This document shows, piece by piece, positions 5,681 to 30,382 of a DNA stretch of 41,201 nucleotides. The position numbers and the translations under genes are program-made. The stretch is taken from assembly GCA_934202505.1 (NCBI GenBank), contig CAKPXW010000002.1:1-41201 (forward strand), read 5' to 3'. The stretch's first letter is position 1. Each line of letters starts with the position of its first letter. Below the pieces are notes generated by a model. That model was not told where the DNA came from. It searched no databases and was given only the letters and a program-made list of their open reading frames with translations. This stretch comes from an uncultured Bacilli bacterium. GTDB taxonomy: Bacteria > Bacillota_I > Bacilli_A > RFN20 > CAG-631.

Positions 5681-5770
5681 GTATCATTAACTATTTTGTA
5701 AAAAAAATCATTTATATTTTTTATTTTGTATTATATAATAAACTATAATTATATTAAAAGGAGGAAACCT

Positions 5771-7735
5771 ATGAATAAAAAATTATTATTACTTTCATCT
5801 TTATTAATACTTACTAGTTGCAATAAAGGAAATGAATCTAATTCTTCAAATAATATTGATTCAAATACAATAACTGAAAACTCTACAAGTAATATTCCAT
5901 CTAATAGTGAGGTTAGTAGTTTACCACAAGAAGAAACTTTTGATGATTTAATTACTAAAATGTTAAATTCTTCTCCTGAGATATCTTTTGAAAATTATCA
6001 AAAATGTCTTGTAATATGTGATGAATTGTACACTACCTATGATACACAAACTTATAAAAAAATTAAAGACGCTGGTATCGATAGATCATGGCCTGAAAAA
6101 TCAGCAAATCTATATTTATCATATTGGCAAGCTCATAGTAAACTTATGAAAGCTTTAAAGAAAGTTTTGCAAAATGATTCCAATTTTATTTATTATAATT
6201 CAAGAATAGAAAATTGTGATTTTTATAAAAACTTAGATGAAAACAATTTTTATGTTGATAGAAATTATGTTGACATTGATCTTGATGAGTTAGTAAATCT
6301 TGGCAATACTATTGAAAGCGATTTAGATAATTCATCTATGACTAAAGAAGACTTAGCAAAAAAACTTGAACAATATGATCATTTGTTTGGCTCTTTATTA
6401 AATAACAAACAATTATCTTCTTTGCAATCTGATATATTTGCCGATGATGAAACTTTACAAGATTTATCAGCTACTTATGATGAAAAATATAATGATTTAC
6501 TAAATACTTATAAAGCAATTTTTAAAAAAGCTTTATTAAATGATAAATATAAAGACTATATTTATACTTATTTTGATTTTACAGAAGAAGATTATCAATT
6601 TTTCATTGATGTTGAAATATATGATGATGAAACTATGGCTTTATTAAATAAAGAGACAGAGTTAGTCTCTTCTTATGAAAAAGCTTATAATATGGAAGAT
6701 TCAAGTTTTGACTATGCTCAAAACTATTTAGATTTAGTTACAGTAAGAAATCAAATTGCTAAAGTTATGGGTTATTCTAACTACTATGAATATGCTTTTA
6801 AAGAAGTTTATGATCGCGATTATAGTGTAAAAGAAGCTTCTAATTTAACATCTAATATTTTAAGCAGTACTGATTTAAATACGGCAAACGATCTTTTGTA
6901 TGAATCTATTGCATCAAAATATAATGAGTTAATGACATCTTATCTTAAAGAATCTGCTTTAATGGAAATGTTAACATATTGTGAACAAATTGAACCTAGA
7001 GCAAAACAAGCACTACTTGAACTTGAAACATATGGAAACTATAACTTTGAATATCGTAGTAATAAATATGGAGGTTCTTATGTTTGTACTATTGATTCCA
7101 ATTCTAATAGATTTATTTTAGTCAATAGATCTGGAACAATTATGGATTATTCTACTGTTTCTCATGAATTTGGACATTATACTGCTTTAACCCAAAGTGA
7201 TCCAAATCTTGAAGGAGATACTTATTCTCTTGATATTTGTGAAGTTCATTCTCAAGGAATGGAATACTTAATGACTAATTTTTATAGATCTTTGCTTGGA
7301 GATAGAAAAAAAGCAAATCTTCTTACAAATTATGAAGTATATAATGCTATTTGGACATTACAATCAGGTTCTGCAATTGCTTCTTTTGAAGAATATGCCT
7401 ATACTACAACAGACACTTTAACTACAAGTAAATTAATGGCAAAATCTAATGAATTATTAGGTGGTATTGGTACAACTGTTAAATATTATGATATTCCTCA
7501 TATTTTTTCATCACCTGCTTATTATATTTCTTATGTTACATCTTTAATTGCATCTCTTGAATTATTCTCAATGGACTTTAATGAAGCAATAAAATCTTAC
7601 CAAACTATCGTAAGTTATGGTGAAAGTAATAATTTTAAATTTGTTTTAAATAAAGCTAATTTAAAAGATCCTTTTACTGATGATGCATGGCAAACTGTTT
7701 TAACAAAAATAAAATCTGTTGCTGGTGTAAAATAA
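5771..7735 (+). CDS. Lipoprotein, M3-family (oligoendopeptidase F-like) zinc metallopeptidase
   Basis: AAAGGAGG RBS before the ATG at 5771. MNKKLLLLSSLLILTSC lipobox. HEFGH zinc motif with a downstream CEVHSQGME Glu, as in the M3 family. Confidence 0.75.
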   Translation: MNKKLLLLSSLLILTSCNKGNESNSSNNIDSNTITENSTSNIPSNSEVSSLPQEETFDDLITKMLNSSPEISFENYQKCLVICDELYTTYDTQTYKKIKDAGIDRSWPEKSANLYLSYWQAHSKLMKALKKVLQNDSNFIYYNSRIENCDFYKNLDENNFYVDRNYVDIDLDELVNLGNTIESDLDNSSMTKEDLAKKLEQYDHLFGSLLNNKQLSSLQSDIFADDETLQDLSATYDEKYNDLLNTYKAIFKKALLNDKYKDYIYTYFDFTEEDYQFFIDVEIYDDETMALLNKETELVSSYEKAYNMEDSSFDYAQNYLDLVTVRNQIAKVMGYSNYYEYAFKEVYDRDYSVKEASNLTSNILSSTDLNTANDLLYESIASKYNELMTSYLKESALMEMLTYCEQIEPRAKQALLELETYGNYNFEYRSNKYGGSYVCTIDSNSNRFILVNRSGTIMDYSTVSHEFGHYTALTQSDPNLEGDTYSLDICEVHSQGMEYLMTNFYRSLLGDRKKANLLTNYEVYNAIWTLQSGSAIASFEEYAYTTTDTLTTSKLMAKSNELLGGIGTTVKYYDIPHIFSSPAYYISYVTSLIASLELFSMDFNEAIKSYQTIVSYGESNNFKFVLNKANLKDPFTDDAWQTVLTKIKSVAGVK

Positions 7736-7736
7736 A

Positions 7737-8300
7737 ATGCAACTATATTGTTTAGAAGTTAATGACTATTCAGCAAATATTGATATGTCTATTTTTCCTT
7801 TAAATTTACAACAACATATCAAACAATATCAAGGAAAAGATAGAATTAATAGTTACTATGCTTATAAGATTTTATATGATAAAATCGATGATTTTAATAT
7901 AGAATTTTCTTTAAATGGTAAACCATTATTTAAAAACCATTTTGTATCGATAAGTCATAGTGAAAATATGGTGTTGGTAGCTATTTCTTTTAAAAATGTT
8001 GGAATTGATTTGCAATGTCATAAAAAAATAAGTAAATCATTAATTGATAAAATCGTTCCTAATAATCATATTAATGCAGTCTATAATGATAATAACTTAT
8101 TTTTTAACTATTGGTGCCTGATGGAAGCAAAATGTAAATATGATGATGGTAAATTAGTAAACTATTTTAAACAAGATATTACTGGTAAAACTTTAACTAT
8201 TACTGATAGAAGCAAAAATTGCTATACTATTGGTATAGTAAGTAATGATACAAATATTAACATTAAAAAAATGGAGATTAATAATGGAAATATCAATTAA
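7737..8300 (+). CDS. 4'-phosphopantetheinyl transferase family protein (divergent)
   Basis: SISHSENMVLVAISFKNVGIDLQ and WCLMEAKCK resemble the PPTase motifs (G-I-D-x-E and W-x-x-K-E-x-x-x-K). Starts 1 nt after the peptidase stop. Confidence 0.6.
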   Translation: MQLYCLEVNDYSANIDMSIFPLNLQQHIKQYQGKDRINSYYAYKILYDKIDDFNIEFSLNGKPLFKNHFVSISHSENMVLVAISFKNVGIDLQCHKKISKSLIDKIVPNNHINAVYNDNNLFFNYWCLMEAKCKYDDGKLVNYFKQDITGKTLTITDRSKNCYTIGIVSNDTNINIKKMEINNGNIN

Positions 8301-9242: not shown

Positions 9243-9659
9243 CTATTTATTTTTATATAATGTTATTTCTTCTTTATTTTCAAATAAATGTTTAAATCTA
9301 GTAACATCTATATAACAATTCTCTTTTACCATAAATGTCTTTAAAACATCAAATAATGTTTTATTACTTATATTAGCAAGGCATGCTAAATAATAGATAT
9401 TCTCACCGGCGTTAACTAATATCACTGTTTCATTGCAAATTGATATTATAAAGCCAAAATCTTTATTTTCCATTTCTAGACTATCAATAAGTATAGAATT
9501 TTCGAAATTATTAGCATTAATGACATACCTTTTTACTTTACTTTCAATAATTGGTTTTGTTTTATCAAGTTCTCCTTCAAATAAAAATGAATTATTTAAT
9601 GTTTCGTCGTATTTTACAAAATAAGGAGTCCTTATATATCTAAATTGTACATTTTCCAT
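9243..9659 (-). CDS. Hypothetical protein
   Basis: 138-aa ORF with GGAG-containing upstream sequence; no motif recognised. Confidence 0.5.
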   Translation of the reverse strand: MENVQFRYIRTPYFVKYDETLNNSFLFEGELDKTKPIIESKVKRYVINANNFENSILIDSLEMENKDFGFIISICNETVILVNAGENIYYLACLANISNKTLFDVLKTFMVKENCYIDVTRFKHLFENKEEITLYKNK

Positions 9660-9775: not shown

Positions 9776-9849
9776 AGGGGCATAGTTAAATGGCTTAACA
9801 ACGGTCTCCAAAACCGTCAATCTGGGTTCGATTCCTAGTGCCCCTGCCA
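9776..9849 (+). tRNA. trnW: tRNA-Trp (anticodon CCA), CCA-3' encoded
   Basis: Folded by hand: acceptor AGGGGCA/TGCCCCT, anticodon stem ACGGT/ACCGT with loop CTCCAAA, T-arm CTGGG-TTCGATT-CCTAG, discriminator G, then CCA. Confidence 0.9.
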
Positions 9850-9922
9850 TTAAGAATGCATTAGTTTGATACAGTAAAAATGTATTAAACTTTTTTTATT
9901 TTTACGGGAGTTTGATTCTTAC
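9848..9922 (+). repeat. Left copy of a ~75-bp imperfect direct repeat (candidate attL), abutting the tRNA 3' end
   Basis: CATTAAGAATGCATTAGTTTGATACAGTAAAA... recurs at 13608..13681. The first 33 nt have one mismatch; overall about five-sixths identity by hand alignment. Confidence 0.85.
9863..9898 (+). terminator. Rho-independent terminator of tRNA-Trp (inside the left repeat)
   Basis: AGTTTGATACA / TGTATTAAACT forms an 11-bp stem (one G-T pair) with a 7-nt loop, followed by TTTTTTT. Confidence 0.7.
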
Positions 9923-10000
9923 CGTATGTTCGAACATTCGAACTTTGATACATATAATTTTCATTTTAAATTGTGAATTTTTGAAATTCTATATGCTTAC

Positions 10001-10080
10001 TATTGAACGATTATTTTAACAAATGAACGATTACTGAAACTATTGAACGTTTACTCCAACAATTAAACGATATAAATAGA
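10001..10080 (+). repeat. Four iteron-like direct repeats with exact 20-bp phasing
   Basis: TTGAACGATTA (10003), ATGAACGATTA (10023), TTGAACGTTTA (10043), TTAAACGATAT (10063). Confidence 0.85.
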
Positions 10081-10126
10081 AAATTCTTTATAAGTAAAAA
10101 AAATATGTAATTTTGCAGTTTTATCA

Positions 10127-10154
10127 TTGATTTATTACCAATTTTCGATATAAT
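10127..10154 (+). promoter_or_regulatory. Putative promoter of the AlbA_2-like gene
   Basis: TTGATT (10127..10132), 16-nt spacer, TATAAT (10149..10154). Confidence 0.5.
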
Positions 10155-10182
10155 AAACTTGGTAATAAAAGTTGGTGATAAA

Positions 10183-11580
10183 ATGAAAATTAAAGAAATA
10201 ATTAATGAACTATTGCAATTTTCTAAAGAAAGAGAGTGGTTTGAGTTTAAAGAAAATTGGTTTCAACCTGTCGCTCTTGGAGAATATGTTTCTGCTCTTT
10301 CTAATGCGGCCGCTCTTTTAGGAAAGGACTATGGATATTTTGTATGGGGGATAAATGATGAAACTCATGAAATAGTGGGAACTGATTTTGATTATTACCA
10401 AGACTATAGACATGAGCCATATCAAAACTATCTAAATAGAAATCTCTCTCCACGAATCAAATTTGAGTTTGGTGAAGATGTTATTAATGGAAAAAGAGTT
10501 GTTATTTTAGCCATTGAAGCAGCAAAAGAAATCCCAACTTCATTTAATAAAGTTAGATATATTCGAATTGGGTCATCAAAAGATTCAATGGAAAATAATC
10601 CTAAAAAGGAAAAAGAACTTTTTAAAATACTTGAAAATGGTTATCCAACAATAGTTAATACTGAATCACTATATCAAGATTTAACATTTGAAAAATTGTT
10701 CATGTATTATGGAAGCAAAGGAATAAGTATCAAGCAAGAAACATTTAAAAAAAATCTTCATTTATTAACTCCTGATGGAAAATACAATATAATGGCGCAA
10801 CTTCTTTCTGATAACTCCCAACTACCATTAAGGTTATCAATATTTGAAGGAGAAACAAAAGGATCAAATCTTTATGCTATTAAAGAATTCGGATTTGATT
10901 GCCTTTTATATTCGCTAAAAAATCTTTTAGATTATGGAGATGTTATCAACATAATTCAATCTGATGAAACAAATAGAAAAGAAGAAAGAAAAGAAACGCC
11001 GTTGTTTGACATAAAATCATTCAATGAAGCTATAGTTAATGCGGTTCTTCACAATAAATGGGTTGATGGAAATGAGCCTATGATAACAGTATACTCTAAT
11101 AGAATTGAAATTCTTTCTAGAGGCACAATAGCTCCATCTCAAACATTAGAAGGTTTTTATTTAGGAGAATCAGTGCCTGTAAATGAAAAATTATCAGAAA
11201 TCTTTGCTCAATTAAGAATAAGTGATAAATCTGGAAGAGGAGTTCCAAAAATTGTTGAAAACTATTCTAGAAATGCTTTTGAATTTAGAGACAATTCAAT
11301 AGTAGTTACTATTCCATTTAATTATAATAGAAAAGTTGGTGATAAGGTTGGTAATAAAATTGGTAATAATCCTACAACTAGAAAGCATGGATTAAACTTA
11401 ACAAGGGAAAGAATCATGTCAGAAATGAGACATAATCCAAATATTACTAAAGTCGAACTTGTTATATTATTAGGTATAAGTAATACTGCAGTTGATAATA
11501 ACATAAGATATCTAAGAGAAAATGGCTACATAATTAGAGTTGGCGAAAATAAAAATGGTTACTGGAAAGTTTTAAAATAA
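10183..11580 (+). CDS. AlbA_2/Schlafen-like domain + HATPase_c_4-like + C-terminal winged-HTH protein (often annotated as RecG-like putative transcriptional regulator)
   Basis: EREWFEFKENW near the N-terminus is typical of AlbA_2. The central NAVLHNKW...GRGVPKI resembles the divergent ATPase-like module. The C-terminal ITKVELVILLGISNTAVDNNIRYLRENGYI is a wHTH. ATG at 10183 is preferred over the TTG at 10159. Confidence 0.7.
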   Translation: MKIKEIINELLQFSKEREWFEFKENWFQPVALGEYVSALSNAAALLGKDYGYFVWGINDETHEIVGTDFDYYQDYRHEPYQNYLNRNLSPRIKFEFGEDVINGKRVVILAIEAAKEIPTSFNKVRYIRIGSSKDSMENNPKKEKELFKILENGYPTIVNTESLYQDLTFEKLFMYYGSKGISIKQETFKKNLHLLTPDGKYNIMAQLLSDNSQLPLRLSIFEGETKGSNLYAIKEFGFDCLLYSLKNLLDYGDVINIIQSDETNRKEERKETPLFDIKSFNEAIVNAVLHNKWVDGNEPMITVYSNRIEILSRGTIAPSQTLEGFYLGESVPVNEKLSEIFAQLRISDKSGRGVPKIVENYSRNAFEFRDNSIVVTIPFNYNRKVGDKVGNKIGNNPTTRKHGLNLTRERIMSEMRHNPNITKVELVILLGISNTAVDNNIRYLRENGYIIRVGENKNGYWKVLK

Positions 11581-11660
11581 CAAAAATAATTATGAAATTG
11601 TTTGATTTTTTGATGTTGCTGAAAAATATGTAATTGTGTAAGAAAAGGAAATAAATAAAA

Positions 11661-12011
11661 ATGAAAAAGATAAATGCAGTAGATTATTTAGGAAAAGAAG
11701 TAACTTTAAAAATTGATAGACCATTAGGTTCAAGACATCCACAATATGGTTTTATCTATATGTTAAATTATGGATATGTACCTAATACTATTAGTGGAGA
11801 TGGTGAAGAATTAGATGCATACTTAATTGGAGAATTTGAACCAGTTACATCTAGTAGTGGCAAAGTTATTGCAATTATACATAGGACTAATGATGACGAT
11901 GATAAACTTATTGTTTCTAAAAATGGGAATGATTATTCGGATGATGCAATTAGAGCATTAACTGAATTTCAAGAAAGATTCTTTGATTCAATAATTATAA
12001 GAAATAAATAA
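11661..12011 (+). CDS. Small inorganic pyrophosphatase-like protein
   Basis: 116 aa. GDGEELDAYLIGE and IHRTNDDDDKLIV resemble the acidic metal-binding core of family I pyrophosphatase, but much shorter. Confidence 0.5.
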   Translation: MKKINAVDYLGKEVTLKIDRPLGSRHPQYGFIYMLNYGYVPNTISGDGEELDAYLIGEFEPVTSSSGKVIAIIHRTNDDDDKLIVSKNGNDYSDDAIRALTEFQERFFDSIIIRNK

Positions 12012-12037
12012 TTTATTAATAGAAGAAAGGTAATTTT

Positions 12038-12673
12038 ATGAGTTTTGATTTTAAAAAAGAATATAAAGAATTTTATATACCTAAAAACAAGCCAAGTATT
12101 GTTGAAATACCAAGAATGAATTATATAGCTGTTAGGGGAATAGGAAATCCAAATGAAGAAAATGGTGATTATCAAAACACTATTGGTTTATTATATGGAG
12201 TAGCATATACAATAAAAATGAGTTATAAGGGAACTCATAAAATAGAAGGCTTTTTTGATTATGTTGTACCACCACTTGAAGGCTTTTGGTGGCAGGATGG
12301 TTTAACTGGAAGCATTGATTATGATAATAAAGAAGCAATGCATTTTATATCAATTATTAGATTGCCTGATTTTGTGACTAAAGAAGATTTTGAATGGGCC
12401 ATTGAAGAAGCCACAAAGAAAAAGAAACAAGATTTTTCAAGAGTTGAATTTTTAACTTATGATGAAGGCTTATGTGTTCAATGTATGCATATAGGTTCCT
12501 ATAATGACGAACCTGCAACCGTTAATACAATGCATGAATATATGAAAGAAAATGGTTATGAACTAGATATAACTGATAAAAGATATCATCATGAAATCTA
12601 TTTAAGTGATCCAAGAAAATGTGATAATAATAAATTAAAAACTGTCATTAGACACCCAATAAAGAAAAATTAA
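12038..12673 (+). CDS. GyrI-like small-molecule-binding domain protein
   Basis: FDFKKEYKEFYIPKNKPSIVEIPRMNYIAVRGIGNPNEENGDY... and CVQCMHIGSYNDEP are characteristic of the GyrI-like (PF06445) family. Confidence 0.8.
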   Translation: MSFDFKKEYKEFYIPKNKPSIVEIPRMNYIAVRGIGNPNEENGDYQNTIGLLYGVAYTIKMSYKGTHKIEGFFDYVVPPLEGFWWQDGLTGSIDYDNKEAMHFISIIRLPDFVTKEDFEWAIEEATKKKKQDFSRVEFLTYDEGLCVQCMHIGSYNDEPATVNTMHEYMKENGYELDITDKRYHHEIYLSDPRKCDNNKLKTVIRHPIKKN

Positions 12674-12841
12674 TAGGGATAGTACCAATCACTTTTAAGA
12701 ATCTAATAGTTAAAAAGAGCTAATCATTTCATTCAGTCTTATTTTAAATATCATGATTTGCTGTTGTATCCATTATGTACCACTAAGCGTGGATATCAAT
12801 TGAAATTATTTGATGTTAATATAGTTTTAGGAGGTGCTACT

Positions 12842-13453
12842 ATGGATATAATTAAGATTGGAAATTTTATCCGTGAATGCAGGAAAAATAAAAATTTAAC
12901 ACAAAAGCAGTTAGCGGATAAATTATTTATTGAGCCTAAAACTATTTCAAAATGGGAAACGGGAAATGGTTTGCCAGATGTTTCGATAATGAAAAATTTA
13001 TGTAATGAATTAGATATATCTTTAAGTGAACTATTTATAGGGGAATATGGTAAAGATGAATCTTATGAATTAATAACAGAACAAATACTCTTAAAAGAAT
13101 TTGAAAAAGAACGAATACGAAATAAAAAAAATTTAATTGGTGAAATTTTAATAGGATGTGCTTTTATTGCTGTTGTAATCACATTAATATTATTTGTAGG
13201 ATTTGTACCTATTGCAACATATTTGAAAATAATACTAGTTGCATTAGCATTAATCTTTATTGTTGTAGGAATAACAGGATTAATATTATTAGATGCTAAT
13301 ATTGGATATTTTGAATGTGCAGAATGTCATGAAAGATTTGTACCTTCAGTTAAAGATTATACTTTTGGATTACATACATTTAAAAAAAGAAAGTTAACTT
13401 GTCCTAAATGTGGTAAAAAGACTTGGTGCTCTAAAAGAATTAATAAAATATAG
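12842..13453 (+). CDS. Membrane-tethered XRE-family HTH protein with a C-terminal zinc ribbon
   Basis: GGAGG RBS before the ATG at 12842. HTH_3 (LTQKQLADKLFIEPKTISKWETG), two predicted TM helices, then CAECHERF...CPKCGKK. Confidence 0.75.
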   Translation: MDIIKIGNFIRECRKNKNLTQKQLADKLFIEPKTISKWETGNGLPDVSIMKNLCNELDISLSELFIGEYGKDESYELITEQILLKEFEKERIRNKKNLIGEILIGCAFIAVVITLILFVGFVPIATYLKIILVALALIFIVVGITGLILLDANIGYFECAECHERFVPSVKDYTFGLHTFKKRKLTCPKCGKKTWCSKRINKI

Positions 13454-13528
13454 AAGTTAATAAATAAATGTCATTTTAAAAGCTTCCAACAAGAAATATT
13501 AAGTTGATTATAAAATAGGAATGTTATT

Positions 13529-13585
13529 GCGTTACGCAAAATAGAGGCAGGGTTACGCAAATTGATAGAAACGTTACGCATTTTG
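13529..13585 (+). repeat. Three direct repeats with exact 21-bp phasing
   Basis: GTTACGCAAA (13531), GTTACGCAAA (13552), GTTACGCATT (13573), ending about 25 nt before the right direct repeat. Confidence 0.85.
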
Positions 13586-13607
13586 TATCAAATGTTGTGT
13601 TTCTAGA

Positions 13608-13681
13608 CATTAATAATGCATTAGTTTGATACAGTAAAATGTGTCGAACTTTTTTTGCTTTTACGTGGGTTAATTCTTATC
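13608..13681 (+). repeat. Right copy of the ~75-bp imperfect direct repeat (candidate attR), also a terminator-like hairpin
   Basis: CATTAATAATGCATTAGTTTGATACAGTAAAATGTGTCGAACTTTTTTTG... The hairpin AGTTTGATACA / TGTGTCGAACT is kept through G-C and G-T pairs and is followed by a T-run. Confidence 0.85.
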
Positions 13682-13806
13682 ATTTGTTTTACCTTATGAG
13701 CAATAATGCTACACTTATAAAATGATTTATTTTGCCAAATATTTCGCCATTGTATTGATTTATTTCGTCAAAATTCATATAATTAATATAGTAAAAGGTG
13801 AAATAA

Positions 13807-14901: not shown

Positions 14902-17900
14902 ATGAAAAAATATTTTAAAAAAACAAGTATTGCTATAATAATTGTTATGATGTTCATTTTCGCTATTTTTGGTGGCGAGACAATTACAATTCATACAAAC
15001 GCCGATAATACAAAATATAAAACAGTCGTGAACGCTCAAGGTGTCAAGACAGAAAAAGGGACAAAAGCGACAACGCAAGTAGAATTAGGAAATTATATCA
15101 GCCTTGGTAAGTACAACGGCAAGGATGTAATATGGAGGTGCGTCAGTATTGATGAGAAAGGGTTACTTATGCTTGCCGATAACATAATCGACACACTCCC
15201 TTACGACGCTAAGACCAACGACAACAACCGTTCTAAGTCACACAGCCGCAACAATAATCGTGATAACCGCGGCTCTAACTATTGGAAAGACAGCAATATG
15301 CGTTCTTGGCTCAATTCTACGGCAGTATCAGGCGAAGTGAAGTGGCTATGTGGTAATCCGCCAAGGGCCGGTTATGTAAATGAAAATGCGTATGACCAAA
15401 AAGCCGGTTTTTTGAACGACTTTTCCAAAGCCGAGATTGCCGCAATGAAGAACGTGACCCAGCGCTCTTTGGTATCACACCCTGAGTACAATCATGGATT
15501 TCATGATGGTGATGGTCGCTCTGATTTGGAATTTAATGAGAACATTGAGAACGTTGCCAGTAATTTCAACAGTGCATATGGCGAAAACTCGACCGAAAAG
15601 GTTTTTCTGCTAGACGTCCAACAAGTCAATAGAGTGTGGAAAAATTTCGATAATTATTATATAGGCAGAAAAGAAGGATTTGCTTGGCCTTATTGGCTAA
15701 GGACACCTCTTTCTAGTTGCAACCACCTAATGCGCTATGTGGGCAGCAATGGATTTGTTGGAAAAGATTACCCAACAAATGCTATTGGAGTAAGACCTGC
15801 GTTTTATCTAGATTCAGACTATTATGTAACAACCTCCGGCAATGGCAGTGCAAGCAATCCTTATGTTGGCTCTGCACCTGATAAAATCGAGGACGACTAT
15901 ACCATAGCCGAGTCGGAAGAAGACCCAAATCAAGAATGGGACGTAAGCCTTGACCAACAACTTAAACTTACCCTTGGTCCATACTATTCTAGCGATGGCA
16001 AATATGCCACACCGACTATTCCTATCTATACTATCCAAAAGACAAGAAGTGACACCGAAAATATGGTAATTCTTATTTGTGGCGAGGGTTACACCAAGAG
16101 TCAGCAACAAAAGTTTATCAATGATGCAAAAAAAGTATGGGAAGGAGCAATTCAGTACGAACCATATCGTAGTTATGCCGACCGCTTCAACGTATATGCA
16201 CTTTGTACGGCGTCAGAGTCGAGTTTTAACAATGGTGATAGTACATTTTTTGATGTTGTTATAGATAAAAAGGTTGGGCCGATGATTTCAGTAAATAAAA
16301 GTAGTTGGAAAAACCATATTTTCGAACGCTGTATAGGACCTGCATTCATTGAACAAATTCACGACGCTCATATTCCTAATAAAACTGATCCTGATACATT
16401 TATTTGGGACGATGATAAAATGTACCCGCCATTTTATTATGTGCACAACTATATTAATCAATTTGCTTTGCTAGTCAATACGTCTCAAGATTTTGGTGGT
16501 TCACATAGAAATTATAAACGTGGTATCCATTATTTTATAACCCCAGCCGATAACAATCGTGCGCAAAAGTCTTTTGCACATGAGCTTGGTCACGGGTTGC
16601 TAGAACTTGGCGATGAATATATGACTTCAGCCGCAGAATCAATTGACTATACTTCGCTAAATGTGGCATATAATCACAATCCGGAACAAGTAAAGTGGAA
16701 AAAATTACTAGGGTTTAGAAAAACTTTTACATGCAATACACATCCTTCTTATACTGCTTACAATTCCAGTTGGGAATGCCTTATGCGTGATACCAACTAT
16801 CAGTTCTGTGAAGTATGCAAGTTGCAAGGGTACAAGAGAATGTCGCAACTCATAGATGGCAAAAGCCTCTATGTCGCCGACCCAGAAGTTAAGAAATATA
16901 TAGACAGGTATACTAACCCATCGGACTTTGTGGAAACAAATTACAATGGATATATTAATTTTATAAATTATCGTGAGGGAGTTTTGCTTAGCGGCTGGAA
17001 CAAAAACAAATTCAACACGGGTATGGTAGGTGAGAAAATTCAACTTCGCACCATCGTGCAAAATCTTTCAGACACTACGGAACGCCAAGTTACTATGAAA
17101 TTGTGGATAAAGCATGCCGATGGAAGCGTTGCAACTACAACTAGCGGTCAAATGCTAGAAGCAACACAAACTTTTACTATTCCTGTATGGAGCGAAAAGA
17201 GTAAGTTTTGGCAAAAGGGAGCTTTGGAATATAATGGTAGTGATTTGAATTCTGGATTGGAGAATTGTGAGTTGATTTACCAAATTCCACTAGACGCAGT
17301 GCTAAATAACGGCGACACCGTTGCCTTTGAAGTAACTGACGAAAACGGAAATGTGCTTGCTCACGACAATACCGAAACCCAACCATATGCAAACATTAAT
17401 ATTGAATATAAATTTGAGGACGGAAGTCCAATGCCTAATGCAACTAAAGCCGTAATACCTCTTGCAGTGGGAAGCTATGTTAATTGGACGACTGCTCCAT
17501 CACTTTATGGACATGTACTTAGCAAAGTTGATGGCCTAAATCAAATTGTAAGCGGGAGCGGCCAAACGGTGACGTACTATTATGCCAAAAAAATAGACAC
17601 CCATATTCACGATTGGAGTGATTGGGTAAGCAATGGTAACGGAACGCATACCCGCACTTGTACGAAAGATAGTAGTCATACCGAAACAGCAAATTGTTCG
17701 GGCGGAATGGCCACTTGCACAACAAAAGCGGTTTGTGACGTTTGCAAAACAATGTATGGCGAAACTGCATCTCATAACACAACGCAATATGGCGGAAAAG
17801 ACGGCACGGGACACTGGAATACTTGTTCGACTTGCGATAACAAATTCAACTTTGAAGCACATACTCCTGACAGAGAAAAAGCTGATGAAACCACCCCTGT

Positions 17901-29164: not shown

Positions 29165-30382
29165 TTATCCTCTATTGAAGAATAATTCTTCTATCTTATG
29201 TTCATCAATTTTTGAACCAATTACTACAATTCTTCCTGTATAGTCAGGTTCTCCTAAACGAATTTCGTAGTCTCCAACAACATAATCAAAGTAATACCAT
29301 TTTTCATTGTCACTTGCTTTTAAAATTCCTTTTGAACGTAAAATTATTCCAAGAGATTCATCAGTTGCTAATGTATTTAAGAATTTTTCAAGTTGTTCTT
29401 TACTTATAGAAACAGATGTTTCTTTACCCCAACTTGTAAATACTTCATCGGCATCATGACCATGGTGATGATGATGTTCATGACCTTCTTCATGATGATG
29501 ATGGCAGCAACATTCATCGTCATGATCATCTTCATGTTCTTCTTCATGATGATGGTGACAACAACATCCATCGTCATGATCATCTTCATGTTCTTCTTCA
29601 TGATGGTGATGACAACAACATCCATCGTCATGATCATCTTCATGTTCTTCTTCATGATGATGATGACAACAACATTCATCATCGTGATCATCTTCATGTT
29701 CTTCTTCATGATGATGATGACAACAACATTCATCATCGTGATTATGTTTATGTTCTTCTATCATTTGTTGAAGCATTTCATCTTTTAAAGATACTTTTTC
29801 TTCTAAAACAGCTAATAATTTATTTCCATCTAATTGAGAAATTGGTGTTGTTATTATATTAGCGTGATCATTCTTTTCTTTTATTAAATCAACAACTTCT
29901 TGGATTTTTTCTTCAGTTGTTTTATCAGATTTTGATACTACAATAGTATTTGCGGCTTCTATTTGATTATTAAAGAATTCGCCAAAATTTTTCATATACA
30001 TTTTTGCTTTTGGCCCATCAACAACTGTAGCAATAATATTTAATTTTAAATCAGCATCTACTTTTAAAACAGCATTAACAATATCTGATAATTTTCCAAC
30101 TCCTGATGGTTCAATAATTATTCTTTCAGGATTAAATTTATTAATAACTTCTTTCATAGAAGATTCAAAATCTCCTACCAAAGAGCAACAAATACAACCA
30201 GAATTTATTTCTTTAATATTAACTCCTGATTCCTTTAAAAAGGTTCCATCTATTCCTATTTCTCCAAATTCATTTTCAATCAAAACAACTTTTTCTTTTT
30301 TAAAAGAACTTTCAAATAGTTTTTTAATAAGTGTTGTTTTCCCAGCTCCTAAAAAGCCTGAAATAACATCTACTTTTATCAT
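29165..30382 (-). CDS. COG0523 (CobW/ZigA/ZagA-type) G3E metallochaperone GTPase with an expanded Cys/His repeat linker
   Basis: GFLGAGKTT Walker A, GCICCS metal motif, EPSGVG, CobW_C-like C-terminus, and five HDDECCCHHHHEEEHEDD repeats in between. Confidence 0.85.
   Translation of the reverse strand: MIKVDVISGFLGAGKTTLIKKLFESSFKKEKVVLIENEFGEIGIDGTFLKESGVNIKEINSGCICCSLVGDFESSMKEVINKFNPERIIIEPSGVGKLSDIVNAVLKVDADLKLNIIATVVDGPKAKMYMKNFGEFFNNQIEAANTIVVSKSDKTTEEKIQEVVDLIKEKNDHANIITTPISQLDGNKLLAVLEEKVSLKDEMLQQMIEEHKHNHDDECCCHHHHEEEHEDDHDDECCCHHHHEEEHEDDHDDGCCCHHHHEEEHEDDHDDGCCCHHHHEEEHEDDHDDECCCHHHHEEGHEHHHHHGHDADEVFTSWGKETSVSISKEQLEKFLNTLATDESLGIILRSKGILKASDNEKWYYFDYVVGDYEIRLGEPDYTGRIVVIGSKIDEHKIEELFFNRG
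29479..29757 (-). repeat. About five tandem copies of a 54-bp coding repeat
   Basis: Plus-strand unit CATCGTCATGATCATCTTCATGTTCTTCTTCATGATGATGGTGACAACAACATC repeats head-to-tail from about 29515, with only a few substitutions per copy. Confidence 0.9.

Follow-up and report, generated by a model that had tools for sequence, protein, structure and literature searches.

Phased direct repeats in the arms around a crossover core are known from lambda-type attP regions, where a tyrosine integrase binds arm sites spaced about 10-11 bp apart through its N-terminal domain and accessory proteins (Xis/RDF) occupy tandem sites. Contiguous direct repeats are found elsewhere as well: four direct repeats of about 20 bp are the classic iteron format, and the pSK41 parC centromere consists of four 20-bp tandem repeats. 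Serine integrases are prized in genome engineering for their simple sites. The att sites of large serine recombinases (LSRs) measure about 50 bp and have a dinucleotide core (PMC5499577; PMC10083194), and the known ones need no auxiliary DNA (PMC5499577). CIMEs (defined in PMC5704250) and the SCCmec and psi-SCC composites are made of elements that have no recombinase of their own but retain the sites at both ends and accrete one behind another at a conserved gene's 3' end; a recombinase presumably acts on them in trans. Arm arrays are thus already known for tyrosine integrases, and tandem cassettes without a recombinase as CIMEs and SCC composites. In the literature searched, we found no description of an LSR-type site with conserved phased arrays in its two arms, nor of a half-site made of T-loop and CCA that could serve at many tRNAs. 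Targeting of multiple tRNAs through the T-loop-to-CCA segment is likewise absent from the LSR survey PMC10083194.

The locus described here shares traits with each of these systems. It lies in a window of 41,201 nucleotides (the whole stretch of DNA that was analysed) from an uncultured Bacilli bacterium, in which a cassette without integrase (9850-13609) sits exactly after the CCA of a tRNA-Trp gene. As in lambda-type attP, its phased boxes are of different types in the two arms and hold a conserved position relative to the core, but the associated recombinases are LSRs, the spacing is 20-21 bp, and the binding protein is a presumed one. As in LSR att sites of the Bxb1, A118 and phiC31 type, inverted motifs mark the outer parts of an imperfect palindrome of about 48 bp, the dinucleotide at its centre is non-palindromic and is the only junction repeat, and LSR genes adjoin attP. 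Unlike those sites, this one has conserved arrays on both sides of the core, and on the bacterial side the half-site is formed by the stretch from T-loop to CCA that all tRNAs share, which would permit multi-tRNA targeting. CIMEs and SCC elements use one target gene and have an ICE or an SCC element as autonomous relative, whereas here any tRNA CCA end can serve, the autonomous relative is a tailed prophage, and the ends carry phased box arrays. Finally, the array resembles iterons and pSK41 parC in its four contiguous direct repeats with conserved core and variable linker, a format that suits cooperative binding on one DNA face, but it is chromosomal, tied to a recombination site, and has no linked Rep or Par genes.

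The array and the cassette that carries it

The sequence reads as four 20-bp units in phase on the plus strand (9998-10077): U1 (9998-10017, TACTATTGAACGATTATTTT), U2 (10018-10037, AACAAATGAACGATTACTGA), U3 (10038-10057, AACTATTGAACGTTTACTCC) and U4 (10058-10077, AACAATTAAACGATATAAAT). Their 10-nt cores, at 10004, 10024, 10044 and 10064, are TGAACGATTA, TGAACGATTA, TGAACGTTTA and TAAACGATAT; the core of U4 is degenerate, with 3 mismatches to TGAACGATTA. TRF reported the repeat at 10002-10071 (period 20, 3.5 copies, 76% matches, 0 indels, score 77). Self-identity of the array at lag 20 was 44/60. This is the peak of the 41-kb window over all lags from 12 to 30, and all 200 dinucleotide shuffles stayed below it (mean 35.3, maximum 39). 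A chance product is excluded, and the four phased repeats listed by the initial annotation are real. Within the window, TGAACGATTA at up to 1 mismatch was confined to the array and one other site (a 1-mismatch match).

Several identities for the array were considered and set aside. An RNA element was rejected, as an Rfam search for one gave the tRNA as sole match and the predicted fold left the array region unstructured. A promoter inside the array was rejected because the TTGAAC hexamers lack a correctly spaced -10 box. Likeness to cre or to an SOS-box was judged by eye and dismissed, and an Xer/dif-type module was discarded as no dif-like core was recognised.

The tRNA-Trp (CCA) gene on the host side of the junction (9776-9849, plus strand; ARAGORN, Rfam tRNA score 61 bits) provides the B half of the site. 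Its T-loop GTTCGAT (9826-9832) is followed by 15 nt and the central dinucleotide CA (9848-9849). The P' half-site, identified by sequence and alignment, comes directly after it (9850-9872, plus strand) and consists of N16 (TTAAGAATGCATTAGT) and TTGATAC (9866-9872). A predicted hairpin, AGTTTGATACA / TGTATTAAACT followed by a T run (9863-9898, plus strand), looks like a terminator substituting for the tRNA gene's own; in the module alignment its copies differ by G-U-compatible changes. It escaped a terminator scan, its stem being too poor in G-C pairs.

Further inward lies a block (9903-9952, plus strand; fold and pattern match) with a T-arm-like hairpin (9903-9926; left-module consensus GGGTTCAATTCCTAC), GTTCGAAC..TTCGAAC (9928-9943) and a second TTTGATACA (9944-9952). 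It includes a pseudo half-site TG-N16-TTGATAC, with a minus-strand match at 9927-9951. About 100 module copies conserve the block, with the pseudo half-site as TG/GG-N16-TTGATAC. Judged by this sequence, it is possibly a fossil attL, a tRNA 3' fragment plus P' half-site captured by an ancestral element. The TTCGAACATTCGAAC doublet that had been noted at 9929-9943 is indeed present, and it belongs to this conserved end module.

The array itself, hereafter the L-box array (core TGAACGATTA; evidence from TRF, shuffles and conservation), ends 47 bp upstream of the predicted promoter of the AlbA_2 gene, in agreement with the initial estimate of about 50 bp. The promoter and operator region (10127-10182, plus strand) contains TTGATT (10127) and, at a spacing of 16, TATAAT (10149-10154); the inverted repeat TTTATTACCAA / TTGGTAATAAA flanks the -10 box on both sides, and the direct pair GGTAATAAA / GGTGATAAA comes after it. 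This operator is a probable site of autoregulation. The GTTGGTAATAAA motif occurs again within the AlbA_2 coding sequence (11332-11369) as a 12-bp repeat encoding KVGDKVGNKIGN, just ahead of the wHTH domain. Pfam scans identified four cassette genes, all on the plus strand: an AlbA_2+HATPase_c_4+wHTH gene (10183-11580), a pyrophosphatase-like gene (11661-12011), a GyrI-like gene (12038-12673) and a gene for an XRE-HTH membrane protein (12842-13453). No recombinase was found by Pfam scans among these four genes and 29 further ORFs of the window. A whole-cassette megablast against plasmids and phages yielded one GyrI-like match, with no match in the phage collection.

The right arm contains an R-box array (13530-13580, plus strand) of three copies of (C/G)GTTACGCA, i.e. 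CGTTACGCA, which start at 13530, 13551 and 13572 with 21-bp spacing. Pattern matching placed the P half-site immediately beyond it (13585-13609, plus strand): GTATCAA (13585-13591), N16 and CA (13608-13609), with which the cassette ends on the right. Neither box type was found in inverted form in the opposite arm of this cassette. Repeat search and alignment revealed the left module of a next, older unit at 13610-13690 (plus strand); it comprises a P' half-site whose TTGATAC spans 13626-13632, the hairpin, and a T-arm-like piece that is degenerate. As in a CIME or psi-SCC element, the stretch 9850-13609 therefore has both arms but no recombinase and abuts the next left module at 13610. A pattern search of the window for a P half-site downstream of the older unit, at its right end, found none.

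The two left modules form a direct repeat that is nearly exact over 32 nt (9848-9879 versus 13608-13639) and continues at 83% identity to about 9930 (about 83 nt). The repeat end can be set at either point, so the array starts 68-119 bp past the left direct repeat, for which the initial annotation gave about 80 bp. Within the older unit, TATTT(T/C)G(C/T)CA occurs three times (13728, 13740 and 13761) upstream of a lipoprotein gene (13807). The same region (13723-13772) contains two copies of the 17-nt sequence TGATTTATTTyGyCAAA, 33 bp apart, which may be another operator.

Conservation of the array in a family of tRNA-associated elements

When metagenomes were scanned with the module hairpin, 110 stretches were recovered. 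Most of them come from the human gut, and about 100 contain the whole left module of about 100 bp. A tRNA gene on the same strand lies directly ahead of the module in 55/112 copies. These tRNAs represent 13 anticodons, with Trp-CCA accounting for 30/55, and the offset is identical in 52/55. Most of the remaining module copies come after the conserved right end of a previous unit, indicating that units are stacked in tandem. Closed cassettes of 0.75-8.8 kb were delimited in 11 loci. Scans of IMG/VR with the hairpin and with the array pattern gave chance matches only. One related module (L010, about 200-430) is preceded not by a tRNA but by the end (3') of a tmRNA-like gene (GGGGTTCGACTCCCC...CCACCA), for which ARAGORN made no call in the partial locus.

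The array was found by TRF with period 20 in about 45/109 post-module regions. A chained search detected 50 arrays at most 400 nt from the hairpin, starting 135-161 nt from the hairpin start. The starts cluster, within 1-2 nt, at 139, 149 and 159 nt from the core hairpin, i.e. in steps of one helical turn, a 10-bp quantisation that rests on three spacer types only. In all full left arms, this 80-bp array of four units is found about 150-175 bp from the crossover. Each unit keeps its own variants throughout about 40 distinct arrays, with the consensus sequences AAyGATTGAACGATTAyCyT (U1), AACAAATGAACGATTAyAGG (U2), AACTATTGAACGTTTACyCC (U3) and AACkATTGAACGATTATTGT (U4). Copy number drifts from 1 to 5 units, and in one locus (L246) U1 and U4 are fused. 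Collapse to a single unit is common (16 copies), and four units are therefore not required for persistence.

Column entropy in 27 distinct four-unit arrays was 0.32 bit, compared with 0.85 in the 40 nt upstream and 1.30 in the 40 nt downstream. Within the units of these arrays, mean entropy was 0.16 at positions 1-16 and 0.93 at linker positions 17-20, the pattern expected if the core were constrained by protein binding. The exact sequence TGAACGATTA occurs 124 times in 816 kb of family loci, versus 3.5 copies expected from composition; 107 copies are in arrays and 16 are single-unit remnants at the same position. Only 1 of the 124 lies elsewhere, and the motif is thus not dispersed through AT-rich DNA, a distribution that would have argued against a dedicated array. 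Homologous loci conserve both the array and its phasing, and a sister family has another motif with a 19-bp period at the same place. The array is a conserved, constrained and position-fixed part of the left arm in a family of elements that insert at the CCA end of tRNA genes.

The sister family (L006, L008 and L011) has CA-N16-TTGATAC and the hairpin, followed by 1, 2 or 4 copies of CTACTAGAAAAACGATACC with a 19-bp period, about 100-160 nt upstream of the respective AlbA_2 genes. Another locus (L213) contains 30-bp composite units AAACGATTT...GGTGGTTTCA in both arms (9250-9360 and 10230-10340) of a 1.25-kb cassette.

The cargo behind the arrays is diverse. It was surveyed by Pfam on 221 cluster representatives, families being taken as the top 25 per batch, a cut-off that makes the survey uninformative for rare families. 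The cargo includes XRE/C-proteins with D12 methyltransferase, C5 methyltransferase, and EcoRI-like and DpnII-type endonucleases, as well as AlbA_2, a large surface protein, SIR2 and SNF2 proteins. Cargo genes are nearly always oriented like the tRNA, and cargo-specific DNA with its own promoter starts right after U4 in at least 5 different contexts. The window also has a gene for a large surface protein outside the cassette (14902-18948; 1348 aa; DUF6273, Peptidase_M64 and Flg_new_2), with a GC content of 37-43% against a background of about 27%. Its relatives are frequent cargo of the same cassette family and adjoin the LSR pair in prophages (L318, L319).

Geometry of the attachment site and associated recombinases

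Spacings around the junctions are nearly invariant. The distance from GTATYAW to TTGATAC was 34 nt in 19/21 distinct cassette-to-cassette junctions, the distance from the T-loop GTTCRAN to TTGATAC was 33 nt in 37/40 distinct tRNA junctions, and the central dinucleotide was CA in 64/73 distinct junctions. In tRNA numbering, T-loop positions 53-59 are followed by 15 nt and then by C75-A76. The fixed spacings and the central CA together define GTATCAA-N16-CA-N16-TTGATAC, an imperfect palindrome 48 bp long that has the CA of the tRNA CCA as its centre. The site thus has the properties of an LSR site, i.e. an imperfect palindrome in the range of about 40-50 bp and a central dinucleotide that is the sole sequence common to both junctions. 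This geometry fits the sites of large serine recombinases and not tyrosine-recombinase cores, as far as sequence can indicate.

Other end types were compared and rejected. A lambda-type core would have a 6-8 bp overlap between inverted repeats, whereas here the motifs are 34 bp apart around CA. An integron attC was dismissed as no IntI was found, the junction CA|TTAAG does not match G|TTRRRY, and the cassettes carry their own promoters. Tn7-like ends were discarded because left and right boxes differ and the array is about 150 bp from the junction, not at the terminus; no Tn7-type (TnsB-like) transposase was among the families listed in the cargo census.

Homologous right arms contain 1-4 copies of GGGTATGCA, GGGTGCTAA or TGTACGCA at spacings of about 21-31 bp, and in every subfamily the last R-box is 2-4 nt from the P half-site. 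A phmmer census found LSR genes in at least 10 family loci. LSR pairs are the sole recombinases that recur in family loci, and they are located at the right end of Heliusvirales-like prophages, adjoining the right arm. A heuristic regular-expression search for catalytic motifs (not an HMM search) detected no tyrosine recombinases in 992 kb of family loci. The prophage right end has the order HTH, SHOCT, LSR1 (440 aa), LSR2 (529 aa), moron and right arm; the same prophage also carries tail, holin and HNH genes. The small HTH and SHOCT proteins upstream of the LSR pair are encoded at 6299-6685 and 6657-6941 in L209, and at 59598-59996 and 59989-60198 in the phage record PV036447.1 (see below). 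An 8.8-kb unit (L231) consists of a left arm with four array units, two LSR genes and a right arm, and is a deletion derivative of the prophage that joins the left arm to the LSR end. L246 and L209 were also checked and were not contiguous. An IMG/VR scan with the LSR recovered relatives at 22-50% identity only. A recombination product (empty site or circle junction) was not seen, and the LSRs are linked to these ends by association only.

The best phage-database match to LSR2 (53.5% identity) is in PV036447.1, the Anaeroplasmataceae phage NatCom_34063 (Ca. Heliusvirales). This record starts with CACCA|TTAGAGTACATTAGTC|TTGATAC, with N16 between the two motifs, followed by the hairpin and a T run. 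GAACGATTAC boxes are at 176, 196 and 225, and an XRE ORF and a methyltransferase come next. At the other end of the record, the LSR pair is followed by three GGGGTGTCG boxes and by GTATTAA-N16-CA. Its arms are linked by a 31-bp perfect inverted repeat, AGTGTTAGAACGATTACTTCCGACACCCCTA, which includes one L-box and one R-box, and its L-box core is the same as that of the family although the rest of the arm is unrelated. The Heliusvirales paper makes no mention of tRNA, integrase or attachment sites. The left end of an Oscillospiraceae Heliusvirales phage is coding and leaves too little space for such an arm, so that the arm feature is specific to one lineage.

Possible roles of the array

The initial annotation had offered three kinds of binder for the repeats: a recombination directionality factor or integrase arm domain, a replication initiator, or the wHTH and XRE proteins of the cassette itself. 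The first agrees best with our results, since the array forms the inner part of a conserved arm beside the att site, does not depend on the cargo, and is matched by an array at the half-site of the other arm, but the enzyme would be an LSR and not a tyrosine integrase. The annotation is thus supported in part, for recombination arms and against the cassette's own regulators.

We favour the reading, at slightly less than even probability, that the array binds an element-encoded protein, absent from the window, which acts with the right-arm boxes on recombination. Three observations speak for a role in recombination: the R-boxes of every subfamily come within 2-4 nt of the P half-site, PV036447.1 has L-box and R-box paired in each of its two arms, and it is with respect to the core, and not the cargo, that the array holds its position. 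The main counter-argument is that known serine integrases do without auxiliary DNA, so that such a role would be unusual. The window array is probably an orphan, as the 41 kb contain no gene for a recombinase and none for a plausible binder.

The proposed mechanism would be as follows. A pair of LSRs from Heliusvirales-like prophages with the same ends would move the elements, and the window cassette would be a decayed or satellite derivative, mobile only with help in trans. The L-boxes, as a phased array, would be bound cooperatively by an element-encoded, sequence-specific protein, for which the small HTH protein whose gene directly precedes the recombinase pair is a candidate. The L-box array and an R-box protein beside the recombinase-bound core would then set up or control attL x attR or attP x attB recombination, through directionality or synapsis. 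We infer both the identity of the binder and the function of the array from sequence comparison.

A broader version of this model is more speculative, and we regard it as possible but somewhat unlikely as a whole. LSR phages of Anaeroplasmataceae and related gut Bacilli would have a lambda-like, multi-protein attachment region, in which a serine integrase is controlled by phased arrays of L-boxes and R-boxes on both arms, with an inverted composite site coupling them. This integrase would read the T-loop-to-CCA segment and could therefore use any tRNA. The same arms would allow integrase-less cassettes of defence genes to be mobilised in trans and stacked behind tRNAs. If this is true, an LSR lineage with conserved auxiliary arrays would represent a new layer of control over directionality or synapsis, and the T-loop and CCA half-site would explain how one recombinase uses many tRNA genes. 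The architecture also defines widespread, unannotated small cassettes in human-gut Bacilli, with restriction-modification and other defence genes stacked behind tRNA genes, which can now be found from their ends.

Alternatively, the array could be a transcriptional insulator or operator at the prophage end, where a repressor blocks read-through from the tRNA or represses or activates the first moron promoter after U4. One to three terminator-like hairpins are stacked between tRNA and array, the commonest cargo type has a promoter -35 that overlaps the end of U4, and cargo is almost always co-oriented with the tRNA, all of which would be in keeping with this idea. The promoters behind the array, however, vary with the cargo and are 0 to about 270 bp away while the distance to the att core is held, the R-boxes abut a recombination half-site and no promoter, and PV036447.1 pairs both box types in both arms. 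We therefore consider a purely transcriptional role unlikely.

The array might also be one half of a replication origin (iterons) or of a packaging signal that is split by integration, rebuilt upon circularisation and active only after excision. Arrays are present on both sides of attP, the units are within the range of about 17-22 bp for tandem iteron repeats with a conserved core, and restoration of a function by circularisation has precedent in other integrated elements. The repeat format is the part of the replication-initiator proposal that stands, but no cassette has a Rep gene: none was found among the four cassette genes and 29 window ORFs (Pfam) or the families listed in the cargo census. 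Moreover, no locus links a Rep or terminase gene to the arms, neither a DnaA box nor an AT-rich element for unwinding was noticed next to the array, and single-unit arrays persist widely. A split origin or packaging signal is thus quite improbable.

Less probable still is a neutral relic, i.e. an ancestral tandem duplication at a phage end that was inherited by all descendants and is functionless now. The unit-specific variants do point to one ancestral 80-bp array and not to ongoing homogenisation, and the drift in unit number would be natural for a relic. Yet it is the 4-nt linkers that take up the substitutions and the 10-nt core that is spared, variability is far higher in the flanks, the diverged family has an array of other sequence at the same place, and PV036447.1 retains the core in an otherwise unrelated arm.

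The relation between array and AlbA_2 gene was followed in 80 loci with AlbA_2 relatives, from assemblies of gut Bacilli, Acholeplasmatales, Anaeroplasma and Clostridia. The AlbA_2 promoter and the TTTATTACCAA / TTGGTAATAAA operator are kept in all 80, and the array is present only in the closest few. The operator is conserved as far as the Lachnospiraceae homologues, which are without array; the array is likewise absent at the AlbA_2 homologues of L002, L004, L005 and L012. The close AlbA_2 loci follow different tRNAs (Arg-TCG, Pro-TGG and Trp). One of them (L001) has three units, with exactly 20 bp gone, and another (L003) has four units with the CG mutated in every core. The L-box array is neither an operator of the AlbA_2 gene nor specific to it. 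In the third proposal of the initial annotation, the AlbA_2-wHTH or XRE protein of the cassette would bind the array, and the AlbA_2 gene would be regulated in this way. The position of the array 47 bp upstream of the promoter and the two DNA-binding proteins of the cassette might suggest this, but it is largely refuted by the distribution of the array, which occurs in dozens of cassettes with neither gene, is missing at AlbA_2 genes elsewhere that keep their own operator, and is present in L003 without an XRE gene, leaving this option a negligible probability.

The CG loss in L003 extends to both box sets. Every CG in the four L-box cores and three R-boxes of this locus (5760-5840 and 7920-7990) is changed to TG, CA or CT, and the CGs of the TTCGAAC doublet are retained. 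The loss could reflect methylation-driven decay or co-variation of both box sets.

Another tandem repeat of the window is of a different nature. A 54-nt repeat at 29461-29764 (5.6 copies, 92% identity) lies within a gene for a CobW-family GTPase (29165-30382, minus strand), is coding, and is rich in His, Asp and Glu codons.
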